Assembly (NCBI GenBank): GCA_963665975.1
Contig: OY762508.1
Coordinates: 2,781,456-2,845,455, forward strand
Source of the DNA: Rhodothermales bacterium
GTDB taxonomy: Bacteria; Bacteroidota; Rhodothermia; Rhodothermales; Bin80
Direction: 5' to 3'
Length of the DNA stretch: 64,000 bases
Every line of letters starts with the position of its first letter. The stretch's first letter is position 1. The notes below the pieces were generated by a model. It saw only the letters and a list, made by a program, of their open reading frames with translations. It made no database searches and had not been told where the DNA came from. Of this stretch, positions 58,078-60,107 are shown piece by piece. The position numbers and the translations under genes are program-made.

Positions 58078-60107
58078 GTGTGCTGGGCAGCGCCCAGATC
58101 AGGTGGGTTCAAGTCCCACTGGCGCTCGGATAAGGGGCGCTATATCCAAAAGCGGGGGTAATGCCTCGTTGGCCGGGGTACGGTAATAAGGGAGGATTCC
58201 TGGAGGACACGAAGTTGGAAACGACGGATCTACATGGGAGGATGACCCCTAAGTTGCCGTGCTGCGAGAGAGCAACCGGAGGGCAGGGTGTCCGCTGCGA
58301 GGCGGAATCTGAAGGGCTTGCGGAGAAGTACCGGGCCGTAGTCAAGGGTGTAAAACCCCGGACGAATCGGTCGGCCAAAGACGGGGCAAGGTCGAGCCGG
58401 CAATATGGCGGCGAAGGCGTTCTTATCCACCCGTCGTACCAAGGTGTGTGCGAACGGCACGGTACGGAAGATCTGGACGTGACCCCAGGAGGGCTCGTCA
58501 TGTTTCCGGGTGGCACCGGGATAACCGATCCTATAAGCCGAAAGGCGAAGTGGAGAGGGATGCGTGGCGAGTCGTCGGACAACTGCATAGTACCTCAAGC
58601 GTGGCGAAAGCCACGTGACTGCGCAAGCGGCGACCGAGTGGGTCGGGGAAGGCGGTTGGCAAGAGTGGTTGGAGAGAGACAATAGGCGAGTGAGTAAGGC
58701 TGATAAGGAGGACAAGTTCCATGAGTGAAAAACCCGGACATTATCAGCCGAGGAGACTTGCGGATTGGATCAATCCAACGGGCAAGAGGAAGGTCCACTC
58801 TCTGGTGGACAAGGTATACAGTCGGAAGAATCTGGAGATGGCTTGGGAGAAGGTGAGGCGTAACGGTGGGGTAGGAGGCGTTGACCGCGAGAGTCTGGAG
58901 TCGTTTGAGGAATCTCTTGAGGAGAATCTGGATCGGCTACATCAGGAGCTCAAGGATCGTGTCTACTGTCCACAGCCGGTGATGCAGCACAAGATTCCCA
59001 AAGCTGGCCAGCCGGGCAAGTATCGCAAGTTGGGTATCCCCACGATCTATGATCGGGTGTGTCAGCAGGCGCTACGGAACCGGTTGGAGTCGATCTTTGA
59101 ACCGGTATTCGATGACGCCAACTTCGGCTACCGGAAAGGAAGATCGACGCGGGATGCGCTTCGGAAGGTCTGGAGAGAATTGGAGGCAGGGAACGAGTGG
59201 GTAGTGGACGCGGATCTGAAGGATTTCTTTGGATCGGTGGATCACGACAAGCTACTTGTGCTGGTCAATCAGATGGTGTCGGATGGGAGGGTGTTGGGAC
59301 TGCTAAAGCAAATGCTCAAGGCGGGGTATGTGGCGGATGGTTGTTGGCACGCTACAGACAGAGGGACGCCACAAGGCGGCGTCATCTCTCCCTTGCTGAG
59401 CAACATTCTGTTAACTCCGTTTGACCGGGAGATGCGGCGTAGAGGGTATCGGCTTACACGGTACGCCGATGACTGGGTGATCACGTGTCGTACGCGTAGG
59501 GAAGCCTACGCGGCGATGGGGTGTGCCCGTCGTATCTTGGAGAAGTTGGGTGTGACCCTCAATTCCAGAAAGACGAAGATCGTTCACGTGCGTGGCGGCT
59601 TTGAATTCCTGGGATACAAGATCAAGCGTGGCAGCCGACCGATGAGGCTGGCGCCAGACAAGATCAAGAGTGGAATTCGCGCTGGAAATTTGTACGCATA
59701 TCCGCGCGAAGCTTCCATCCAACGCTTCAAGGAGCAAATCCGTCGTCGTACGAGCCGCAAGGCTCCGGTCAGTACACGCGTGCTGATTGCGCAACTCAAC
59801 CCGGTCATTCGCGGATGGGGCAACTACTATTGTAGGGCACACATTCGCACACTCTTCAATCGTCTGGACCGATGGATTGTGCGACGCATCTGGTCGCACC
59901 GGTTCAAGCGTTGGCGCTGCAGGGGCTGGAAAAGGCTGCCGGAGCGTCGGCTCTATGACGAGTATGGACTGATATCGTTGATCTATCTCATTCCTTCCTT
60001 GCAGTCTCGGCGACGCACTCTTGTGAAAGCGGCTTACGGGAAAACCGTACGGGCTGTTTGAGCGGCGGACGGAGGTCAGCCCTTCGGGGCGCCTCCTCCG
60101 ACCCGAC
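58078..60107 (+). mobile_element. Group II intron (2030 nt), En-less IEP
   Basis: 5' GTGTG. Domain V is AGCGGCTTACGG-GAAA-ACCGTACGGGCTGTT (60028-60058), with the AGC triad and a 2-nt bulge. Domain VI has a bulged A at 60101, 7 nt from the 3' end (...GAC). In-silico splicing gives a 1071-nt ORF. Confidence 0.9.
58721..60061 (+). CDS. Group II intron reverse transcriptase/maturase (no HNH endonuclease domain)
   Basis: RT blocks including RYADDWVI (YADD) and maturase/X domain RGWGNYY. The ORF ends right after domain V. Confidence 0.93.
   Translation: MSEKPGHYQPRRLADWINPTGKRKVHSLVDKVYSRKNLEMAWEKVRRNGGVGGVDRESLESFEESLEENLDRLHQELKDRVYCPQPVMQHKIPKAGQPGKYRKLGIPTIYDRVCQQALRNRLESIFEPVFDDANFGYRKGRSTRDALRKVWRELEAGNEWVVDADLKDFFGSVDHDKLLVLVNQMVSDGRVLGLLKQMLKAGYVADGCWHATDRGTPQGGVISPLLSNILLTPFDREMRRRGYRLTRYADDWVITCRTRREAYAAMGCARRILEKLGVTLNSRKTKIVHVRGGFEFLGYKIKRGSRPMRLAPDKIKSGIRAGNLYAYPREASIQRFKEQIRRRTSRKAPVSTRVLIAQLNPVIRGWGNYYCRAHIRTLFNRLDRWIVRRIWSHRFKRWRCRGWKRLPERRLYDEYGLISLIYLIPSLQSRRRTLVKAAYGKTVRAV

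Follow-up and report, generated by a model that had tools for sequence, protein, structure and literature searches.

Within a gene of an insertion sequence (IS) of the IS110 family, in the genome of a Rhodothermales bacterium, 2030 nucleotides separate two halves of a recombinase reading frame. The locus raises three related questions: what the inserted element is, how it came to lie in this gene, and what it means for the IS that carries it. The window considered here is the whole 64,000-nucleotide stretch of contig OY762508.1 (assembly GCA_963665975.1) that was analysed. An initial annotation, made from the letters of this stretch, proposed that the recombinase gene carries a group II intron in sense orientation, and this proposal has held up. 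There is high confidence that positions 58078-60107 hold a bacterial group II intron, complete and of the IIE/IIF structural type, whose encoded protein lacks an endonuclease (En) domain, in codon 172 of a recombinase gene belonging to an IS110-family element at 57492-61015. Identity as a group II intron is confirmed by boundaries that are conserved across a family of relatives, by covariation in domains I-III and V-VI, by a match of the intron-encoded protein (IEP) to a curated model, and by empty sites in both DNA and protein.

The interrupted gene and the boundaries of the insertion

The components of the locus are as follows.

57492..61015, + strand: host IS110-family IS, copy A, 3524 bp including the intron and 1494 bp once it is removed
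57564..58077, + strand: exon 1 of the recombinase open reading frame (ORF), codons 1-171 and the first base of Tyr172
58078..60107, + strand: group II intron, 2030 nt, 5' GUGUG to 3' GACCCGAC; ends common to 60 relatives and confirmed by the empty site L088
60108..60664, + strand: exon 2 of the recombinase ORF, with IBS3 = A60108
60665..61015, + strand: non-coding 3' part of the IS (351 nt), which shares 97.6% identity with the end of copy C
61648..62718, + strand: intact paralogous recombinase ORF of IS copy C (Pfam DEDD_Tnp_IS110 and Transposase_20)

At the 5' boundary (58077/58078) the exon ends in CACTTATT and the intron begins with GTGTGCTG, while at the 3' boundary (60107/60108) the intron ends in GACCCGAC and the exon resumes with ACCTCAAG. 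Joining 58077 to 60108 in silico unites 514 nt of exon 1 with 557 nt of exon 2 to give a 1071-nt ORF of 356 amino acids through the split codon T/AC, and the product aligns without gaps to the paralog in copy C, so that the coordinates initially given for the restored frame are all reproduced. The termini fit the 5' GUGYG and 3' AY of group II introns, with GUGUG at 58078 and GAC ending at 60107. Relatives agree on these ends: in 60 independent related introns from many phyla, homology begins at GUGYG and stops at GACCCGAC, exactly the ends observed here.

Uninterrupted versions of the element provide the complementary evidence. Copy A, its intron aside, is collinear with positions 308-1801 of one such version (L088), with 98.1% identity and zero gaps across 1494 nt, and homology ends there; L088 and the joined exons agree in 79 of the 80 bases around the junction, with no gap. 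At the protein level, two uninterrupted homologs (P0121 and P0244) read RTYYLKQLP straight across the junction. The first of these is encoded on the same 3.93-Mb contig as the ORFs of the window, and the same genome thus encodes an empty copy. In total, one occupied copy of the IS is known alongside three related empty copies (P0121, L088/P0244, and P0241), the latter two of which are metagenomic. Such a matching empty site is also helpful for annotation, as gene callers now render the locus as a 208-aa read-through product (P0242, identical to the exon 1 region of the window), a 151-aa partial ORF (P0243, identical to the exon 2 region), and a reverse transcriptase (RT).

As judged from its sequence, the host recombinase is a divergent member of the IS110 family. 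Its alignment to the model for IS110-family RNA-guided transposases (NF033542) is full-length (protein residues 6-337 to model positions 1-342 of 343, E 1e-26) but its score, 94 bits, stays below the cutoff of 140. The protein of copy C exceeds the cutoffs for both PF01548 (31.2 vs 29) and PF02371 (34.3 vs 21.3), and the DEDD and Transposase_20 domains are both present in the uninterrupted homologs P0121-P0149. Copies A and C share ~81% nucleotide identity overall, rising to 97.6% over the last 416 nt. A search of the host protein sequence against the PDB returned no match. When the 351-nt 3' end was examined for a bridge or guide RNA, Rfam gave no match and the folding energy was unremarkable (z = +0.73). 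The IS110-type element adjoins IS21-type ends, and the neighbourhood is a cluster of broken or truncated mobile elements.

Structure of the ribozyme

The RNA domains assigned within the intron are listed below.

58083..58488, + strand: domain I (DI), closing stem 58083-58100 with 58470-58488, from the RNAalifold consensus and pair counts
58178..58268, + strand: divergent peripheral stem of DI, holding a hexamer at 58185-58190
58489..58576, + strand: domain II (DII), consensus helices 24-29, compensatory changes in 18 pairs
58569..58600, + strand: end of DII, J2/3 (GGA, 58577-58579), and start of domain III, an internal look-alike of the usual family target (GAGTCGTCGGACAACTGCATAGT followed by ACCTCAAGC)
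58580..58658, + strand: domain III (DIII), helices 30-34, compensatory changes in 15 pairs
60027..60059, + strand: domain V (DV), AGC triad at 60028-30, 2-nt CG bulge at 60050-51, 5-nt loop GAAAA at 60040-44
60064..60103, + strand: domain VI (DVI), 99.8% of cells paired across 16 pairs, 5 of which show compensatory changes

The consensus fold shows the group II layout of a multi-helix DI followed by DII, DIII, and an ORF carried in domain IV. It comprises 174 pairs across DI-DIII, with compensatory changes in 84 of them versus 16-22 in slid controls, and 97% of cells are paired; the last figure is inflated since the fold was scored on its own source alignment, an effect that weighs less on the compensatory-change counts. 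Nine pairs of the DI closing helices show compensatory changes. The peripheral stem at 58178-58268 is the divergent part of DI, with many mismatches to the relative L080 although the two introns are otherwise 96.6% identical. By comparison, the segment at 58569-58600 is strongly conserved across the family.

Of the 3' domains, DV comprises 13 pairs (compensatory changes in 5, 98.8% of cells paired), and its terminal loop is 5 nt long in all 34 aligned relatives, mostly GAAAA, with no GNRA tetraloop. In DVI, the bulged A60101, the seventh base from the 3' end, is the candidate branch point, and the basal part of the domain is invariant among the 34 sequences. Taken jointly, DV and DVI contribute 29 pairs, 10 with compensatory changes and 99.4% of cells paired, whereas slid controls give 35-44%.

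Rfam, to which the initial annotation had looked for a check of the fold, gave a different picture from that of covariation. The Intron_gpII model (RF00029), which covers DV and DVI, returned no hit at the permissive level of E<10, and group-II-D1D4-3 yielded a below-threshold match at 58291-58478 (21.4 bits vs 32); domains I-III, V, and VI are nevertheless supported by covariation. The DV/DVI miss is probably attributable to the atypical 5-nt DV loop and to a DVI of the IIE/IIF type, and it means that the Rfam model overlooks this large IIE/IIF-type family. Weak Rfam tRNA-like matches at 58029-58127 stem from a T-loop-like hairpin in DI.

The intron-encoded protein

A single ORF occupies domain IV.

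58721..60061, + strand: IEP, 446 aa, with RT domains and an X/maturase domain, YADD at 59462, and no D/En domains

The protein was initially described as having YADD and an X domain and no HNH/En domain, and profile searches agree on each point: Pfam matches to RVT_1 (E 7e-40) and GIIM (E 4e-17) are accompanied by a score of 374.8 bits against the NCBIfam model for group II RT/maturases (TIGR04416; cutoff 300), and no HNH/En domain was matched in the ORF. The C-terminal end lies 42 aa past the X domain. The nearest solved structures are likewise of En-less RTs, namely 7uim (E 1e-64) and 6ar1 (E 8e-58).

Codon differences suggest that both the IEP and the host ORF have been under purifying selection. 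The IEP differs from that of a close relative (L089) by 7 synonymous and 2 nonsynonymous codons, and the host ORF shows 13 synonymous versus 5 nonsynonymous differences.

It had also been pointed out that DV lies within the 3' end of the ORF. This is true of the present copy, in which the stop codon (60059-61) begins at the last base of DV. The arrangement is nevertheless peculiar to this copy rather than a design feature of the family, as only 5 of 60 family introns have an ORF that reads through DV; in 32 of the 60, the ORF stops at a UGA made by the 5' end of DV.

Exon recognition

Group II introns select their exons through pairing of exon-binding sites (EBS) with intron-binding sites (IBS), and the following elements were assigned.

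58072..58077, + strand: IBS1, CTTATT (CGTATT in the empty copy L088)
58402..58407, + strand: EBS1, AAUAUG, in the terminal loop of the hairpin at 58396-58412
58447, + strand: EBS3, U, which pairs with IBS3 at A60108

Unbiased scans of alignment columns identified both intron sites. At the column of 58402, 47 of 60 introns are complementary to the last six bases of their own exons, and three covarying EBS1/IBS1 types are found: ACTATG/CATAGT, GAGATG/CATCTC, and AATATG/C(G/T)TATT. EBS3 is the best single column of all, with perfect covariation in 60 of 60 introns (U:A in 52, A:U in 8). In the occupied copy, EBS1 pairs with IBS1 at 5 of 6 positions, with U opposite U at IBS1 position -5; the empty-site allele offers a G-U pair there and so pairs at all 6.

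These assignments displace the hexamer AAUAAG at 58185-58190, which had been put forward as the EBS: although it is a perfect 6-nt complement of CTTATT, it is very improbably the recognition element and is best regarded as a coincidence, given that a 6-mer match in 643 nt has a chance of ~15% by our own arithmetic, that relatives carry GATAAG or GGTATG at the homologous position regardless of exon sequence, that the surrounding stem is rich in indels, does not track the exons, and is missing from the ~1950-nt family members, and that the column which does complement and covary with the exon is that of 58402.

No EBS2-IBS2 pairing rose above shuffled controls, either as a column or as a duplex, in searches of fixed-offset 6-mers, of 6-mers at any offset against shuffled exons, and with RNAduplex on this copy and its divergent patch. 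This pairing is absent in IIC introns and dispensable for splicing in IIE/IIF introns (PMC3753933), and for this reason it is no general marker of group II introns.

Family, nesting habit, and origin of this copy

The usual home of the family is not an IS but the J2/3-DIII segment of other group II introns. Of the 53 family sites, 28 are located upstream of a second, distant RT. In Telmatobacter, for example, a second copy of the intron is nested exactly at the J2/3-DIII look-alike, i.e., in copies of itself. The nearest relatives of the present intron, L080 and L089 (~97% nucleotide identity), both occupy the canonical nested site, and a 430-aa RT/maturase ORF follows L089 after 75 nt. The present copy is not part of such a twintron, as the window holds a single RT.

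A difference in EBS1 accompanies this difference in location. The copy departs by one base from the family consensus (ACUAUG to AAUAUG), which allows EBS1 to pair again with the IS site (CGTATT, where the canonical target has CGTAGT). Since the site is non-canonical and the single EBS1 substitution fits it, ectopic retrotransposition or one-step retargeting is the most likely origin of the copy. A fuller reading, which is possible and offered tentatively, is that the lineage is a widespread IIE/IIF-type parasite of group II introns that homes to the conserved J2/3-DIII core of its hosts in many phyla, and that this copy represents a natural escape into a protein-coding target, an IS110-family recombinase gene of the RNA-guided type, by way of that one substitution. 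If true, departure from the intron niche would have yielded a recombinase whose expression depends on splicing. The natural one-base change that fits a new target also bears on intron retargeting.

Resemblance to the usual target was scored with a fixed-register position weight matrix (PWM) built from 51 family targets and applied to 127,938 window positions. The IS insertion site ranks 1935th (top 1.5%), and the idea that it strongly mimics the family target was dropped on this account. The internal look-alike at 58569-58600 scores 15.9, the second best in the window. The top-scoring site, at 27366, was considered as an intron and rejected; it is an unoccupied look-alike within an ordinary gene.

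Rather than a one-off ectopic event, the insertion might reflect a retargeted sub-lineage that homes regularly into the IS110 gene, as RmInt1 does into ISRm2011-2. Full EBS1 pairing with the empty allele would suit such a habit, a multi-copy IS would offer targets repeatedly, and the 9 bases that follow the internal look-alike site of the intron recur unchanged in the 3' exon (ACCTCAAGC). Regular homing is nonetheless unlikely: a single occupied copy was found, the same genome has an uninterrupted one and two metagenomic copies are empty as well, the nearest relatives remain in the canonical nested site, and the PWM rank of the IS site is modest. An ectopic or one-step retargeting origin remains the preferred account.

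Consequences for the host element

From what is known of group II introns in general, the intron would be transcribed as part of the recombinase pre-mRNA, its folding would be aided by the maturase, and the 5' splice site would be attacked either by A60101 or by water. Ligation of the exons would then recreate TAC (Tyr172) and with it the 356-aa recombinase. Since this ligation is needed to recreate the ORF, recombinase would be made from this IS copy only after splicing. Dependence of the IS on splicing is in this respect a reasonable inference. As the intron lacks an endonuclease, its proposed route of movement is reverse splicing at replication forks, into DNA that is transiently single-stranded and with nascent strands as primers.

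It is also conceivable that a structurally intact intron shows little or no splicing in vivo, in which case the insertion would be a dead end and the IS copy silenced rather than made conditional on splicing. Precedent for this outcome is provided by RmInt1, which splices very poorly from ISRm2011-2 in its natural host and whose insertion blocks spread of the IS (PMC5894124), and some IIE introns are inactive in vitro (PMC3753933). The U-U mismatch of the occupied copy, in contrast to G-U in the empty allele, and the truncated elements around the locus point in the same direction. Against this, departures from family-conserved positions are few or peripheral, with 1 in the 57 DV/DVI columns and 16 of the 26 in the 5' part falling within the region of the dispensable peripheral stem (alignment columns 117-190). 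Moreover, the IEP and both exons remain open, with synonymous changes outnumbering nonsynonymous ones, and the base changed in EBS1 compensates for precisely this IS site. A dead-end insertion is accordingly considered doubtful, and an IS conditional on splicing is the reading retained.

Comparison with known systems

The insertion is real and precisely bounded, yet it is an ordinary case of nesting with a well-studied precedent. What it offers is a clean three-level nesting of mobile elements, with an intron in an IS110-type element beside IS21-type ends. It does not change the understanding of either group II introns or IS110 elements, and the principle that an IS becomes dependent on splicing, or is blocked, has already been established for RmInt1. 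Homing of introns into IS transposase genes is well known, as with RmInt1 in ISRm2011-2 (PMC5894124); the mobile ribozyme within a mobile element that the initial annotation described is of a kind already known.

The closest parallels are RmInt1 (class D) in ISRm2011-2 and RmInt2 in ISRm17 of Sinorhizobium meliloti. These introns likewise encode an En-less RT/maturase and lie in the sense orientation inside an IS gene, the IS is then splicing-dependent or blocked, and ectopic moves occur to sites with similar IBS (PMC5894124). Their hosts belong to IS630, whereas the host here is of the IS110 family with a DEDD recombinase. The present ribozyme also differs in its IIE/IIF-type 5-nt DV loop and in belonging to a family whose usual home is other group II introns, not ISs.

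With respect to class, the hallmarks of IIE/IIF introns are a 5-nt DV loop in place of the 4-nt zeta' loop, the lack of an En domain, and a ribozyme of 450-700 nt (PMC3753933). The intron has the GAAAA loop and the En-less 446-aa IEP, and 689 nt (2030 - 1341) lie outside its ORF; by these structural hallmarks its class is given jointly as IIE/IIF. Cl.be.I2, Pe.th.I2, and Ge.ur.I1-1 (PMC3753933) share with it the DV loop, the En-less IEP, an IIB-like architecture, a ribozyme of ~450-700 nt, and EBS1-IBS1 as the dominant exon pairing, and its long structured DVI is as in IIF. IIE/IIF introns show an apparent EBS2-IBS2, however, and none is detectable here. Among IIE introns assayed in vitro, splicing was by hydrolysis only, and some showed none (PMC3753933).

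Two further systems are relevant. Twintrons and site-specific homing into group II introns, described for Methanosarcina acetivorans and several bacterial cases (PMC4424553), resemble the present family in that its members are likewise mostly nested in introns. The family nests at J2/3-DIII of the host ribozyme, whereas the copy in the window is flanked by IS110 exons. Finally, the group IIC RTs of E. rectale and GsI-IIC (7uim, 6ar1) have the same RT-X architecture without En, and the RNA described here differs from IIC in having a large DI, an EBS1 of the full 6 nt, and an AGC triad, as well as a target that is not a terminator stem.

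Intron boundaries and empty sites

The group II intron of 2030 nt at 58078–60107 is real and well bounded, is assigned by its features to the IIE/IIF type, and lies in sense orientation within an IS110-family recombinase gene. The initial annotation placed it correctly, with CACTTATT/GTGTGCTG at 58077/58078 and GACCCGAC/ACCTCAAG at 60107/60108. As also stated there, joining of the exons (57564–58077 plus 60108–60664) yields a 1071-nt ORF of 356 aa that aligns without gaps to the 356-aa paralog at 61648–62718.

One genome per species was scanned for relatives of the intron-encoded protein (IEP), giving 79 loci (64–76% identity) in many phyla, and these were compared at the nucleotide level using a query that included the exon flanks. 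Similarity starts at intron base 1, or no more than about 4 bases ahead of it within the 5′ exon where target sites resemble each other, and stops 0–4 bases from the last intron base. A GUGYG start and GACCCGAC end are common to all compared family introns, and the relatives define the same ends as the window intron.

Searching with the protein spliced in silico identified an uninterrupted protein (P0121) that is 97% identical and reads ...SKTNRTYYLKQLP... over the junction. Encoded on the same 3,934,742-bp contig are its cluster members P0242 (208 aa) and P0243 (151 aa), identical to the exon-1 read-through and exon-2 ORFs of the window, respectively, and P0246, a protein from the IEP cluster identical to the window IEP; the window genome therefore also has an uninterrupted IS copy. 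Another such copy, from an ENA metagenome (L088), shows 98.1% identity and 0 gaps in a 1494-nt alignment with the joined exons, and matches 79 of 80 bases around the junction (...GACCGCACGTATT/ACCTCAAGC...). On these two independent lines of sequence evidence, family-wide boundaries and empty sites, the intron ends are judged to be real.

Ribozyme structure and class

Rfam, named in the initial annotation as a check on the structure, is nearly silent on this intron: a DV/DVI match is absent even at E<10, and the D1–D4 match is below threshold. The structure was therefore tested by comparison with relatives, and DI–DIII, DV and DVI could be drawn with compensatory changes.

Ribozyme domains of the window intron
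58083–58488: DI (RNAalifold consensus)
58489–58576: DII (RNAalifold consensus)
58577–58579: J2/3, GGA (RNAalifold consensus)
58580–58658: DIII (RNAalifold consensus)
from about 58660: DIV, with the ORF start (58721) inside
60027–60059: DV, with AGC triad (60028–30), 2-nt bulge (60050–51) and 5-nt loop GAAAA
60064–60103: DVI, with bulged A60101, the 7th base from the end

The DV/DVI model comprises 29 pairs. Across 34 distinct aligned 3′ ends, 99.4% of its cells are paired, as opposed to 35–44% with partners slid, and 10 of the 29 pairs show compensatory changes. The consensus fold of the 5′-most 650 nt, computed with RNAalifold from 27 sequences, has 174 pairs with 97% of cells paired, a percentage inflated by derivation of the fold from the same alignment. 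Compensatory-change counts are much less affected by this derivation, and such changes occur at 84 pairs, compared with 16–22 in slid controls and 41.8 on average after shuffling.

IIE/IIF introns are set apart from other IIB-like introns by a 5-nt DV loop, an En-less IEP, and a ribozyme of 450–700 nt outside the ORF (PMC3753933). The window intron has all three (689 nt lie outside its ORF) and is of IIE/IIF type as recognized by these features, which do not separate E from F. The 5-nt DV loop, together with an atypical DVI, plausibly explains why the Rfam model misses it. Near the 5′ end, a conserved hairpin (58102–58120; GGUGGG-UUCAAGU-CCCACU) has a T-loop-like heptaloop, which accounts for weak tRNA-like, mascRNA-like and Plastid-ycf2 Rfam matches. 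Within DI, a ~90-nt patch (58178–58268) is highly divergent from L080 and L089, which are about 97% identical elsewhere, and the window intron deviates here from 16 family-conserved columns; the patch has the appearance of a peripheral stem that was replaced or evolves fast.

The IEP ORF (58721–60061) has RVT_1 and GIIM domains and scores 374.8 bits against the NCBIfam curated group II RT/maturase model (cutoff 300). YADD and an X domain are present and an HNH/En match is absent, in agreement with the initial annotation, and the C-terminus extends 42 residues beyond the X domain. The reported position of DV within the ORF holds for the window copy, where the stop codon begins at the last base of DV, but not as a family habit (5 of 60 members); in 32 of 60, the ORF ends at a UGA that arises at the very start of DV (G-UGA-AAGC).

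Exon recognition

When introns complementary to the final six bases of their own 5′ exon were counted at each alignment column, a single outstanding column emerged as EBS1 (47 of 60 introns; window 58402–58407). EBS1 and exon covary, with ACUAUG facing CATAGT or CGTAGT in most of the family, GAGAUG facing CATCTC in a subgroup, and AAUAUG facing CTTATT in the window. The empty-copy site, CGTATT, pairs with EBS1 at 6 of 6 positions, one of them G-U. At 58073 (IBS1 −5), the base is T in the occupied copy and G in L088, both in Thr codons, and the G-U becomes a U-U mismatch; this T may be a post-insertion change or a polymorphism. EBS3 is U58447, which is complementary to the first 3′-exon base in 60 of 60 introns (U:A in 52, A:U in 8) and whose column is the single best in an unbiased scan. 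EBS2 was sought in the window intron and its family and none was found; IIE/IIF introns are reported not to need the EBS2-IBS2 pairing in order to splice (PMC3753933). The hexamer first proposed as EBS (58185–58190) sits in a variable, indel-rich peripheral stem, bears no relation to exon sequences, and was rejected, its stem being missing from family members of ~1950 nt.

Usual home of the intron family

Members of the family (loci L001–L079) are mostly nested in other, distantly related group II introns. Their flanks share a common pattern of about GAGTCGGAC-N5-6-CATAGT/ACC..GAAG, a sequence that also ranks among the most conserved segments of the family RNA itself (window 58569–58600, covering the DII end, J2/3, DIII basal helix and DIII internal loop). 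Enough flank was available at 53 distinct sites, and at 28 of these a second RT (30–53% identical) follows 120–760 nt downstream on the same strand, so that these 28 introns lie inside a host group II intron, ahead of the host ORF. The nested target corresponds to the host intron's DII end, J2/3 and DIII internal loop.

The closest relatives of the window intron, L080 and L089 (about 97% nt identity), are both in the canonical site. For example, the L089 intron (3362–5387) precedes an RT/maturase ORF of 430 aa (5462–6754) by 75 nt. In both relatives, the main differences from the window intron fall in the EBS1 loop and the peripheral stem at 58178–58268. In Telmatobacter bradus DSM 23630 (L033, L037, L038), a family copy is nested at exactly the flank-pattern position in another copy of itself (inner intron 1839–3870, outer intron start 1334; insertion at position 514 of the outer copy). 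This self-nested twintron occupies three chromosomal places with differing outer flanks.

A copy outside the usual niche

Since the window holds one RT only and the intron is flanked by IS110 exons, the window copy does not occupy the niche typical of the family. A single base change (C to A) separates its EBS1 from the family consensus, and this change fits the only base at which the IS site departs from canonical CGTAGT (G to T at −2). On the 3′ side, the exon sequence ACCTCAAGC is identical to the nine bases after the intron's own internal look-alike site. By a fixed-register PWM, the IS site falls within the top 1.5% of window positions. Because overall target resemblance is only moderate, the copy is called a putative ectopic insertion or one-step retargeting, neither being preferred. 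The best canonical-target match in the window, at 27345–27376 on the plus strand (AGGTGTCAGGCACAACGGTAGT/ACCGGTAATG; PWM score 20.3), is unoccupied and lies antisense inside an ordinary ORF (26830–27738, minus strand).

Host IS and neighboring elements

Features of the host IS and other elements
18996–19068, minus strand: tRNA gene (Rfam 70.4 bits), the window's only Rfam match at gathering score
55131–55925, minus strand: IstB
55922–57472, minus strand: IstA
57492–61015: host IS, copy A (bounds from the L088 alignment)

Relatives of the spliced protein are annotated as IS110 family transposase, and the protein aligns end to end with the NCBIfam IS110 RNA-guided transposase model at 94 bits, under the 140 cutoff. 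The paralog at 61648–62718 passes both Pfam IS110 domains and shares 50–70% identity with the spliced protein over residues 1–240 and above 93% over the final 116. The intron falls at residue 172, between the DEDD (7–149) and Transposase_20 (218–304) domains. No bridge RNA is claimed, as the 351-nt 3′ non-coding end of copy A matches no Rfam family and its folding energy is unremarkable.

Copy C, the paralogous IS (61648–63070), is about 81% identical to copy A (57564–61016) overall and 97.6% over the last 416 nt, a stretch that includes the 3′ non-coding end. Copy C is thus chimeric relative to A, a pattern suggestive of gene conversion or recombination involving two subtypes of the IS. After an 8-bp spacer, copy A is followed by a second IS left end and ORF start (61024–61233; 97.5% identical to L088), which an IS21-type end truncates at 61233. 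Repeated GATGTCGATCAC motifs (61234–61300) and an IstB C-terminal fragment (61307–61567, minus strand) lie beyond. Copy A itself begins 19 nt upstream of the IstA start (spacer 57473–57491), and the flanks of the L088 IS (L088:203–298, 1794–1836) match the region just past IstB (window 54855–55044) on the opposite strand. The IS110-type element seems to insert beside IS21-type ends.

Activity and comparison with known systems

Codon differences number 7 synonymous and 2 nonsynonymous between the IEP and that of L089, and 13 and 5, respectively, between the host ORF and L088. Purifying selection seems to act on both ORFs, and the ribozyme retains the near-invariant positions of the family, the dispensable stem excepted. 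Such conservation favours an intron that is active now or was until recently, and the window intron is probably functional. Caution over its splicing activity comes from the precedent of RmInt1, which splices poorly in its host, so that its insertion blocks ISRm2011-2 (PMC5894124). The nesting of a group II intron in an IS gene is already known, and group II introns homing site-specifically into other group II introns, as well as bacterial twintrons, have already been described (PMC4424553).
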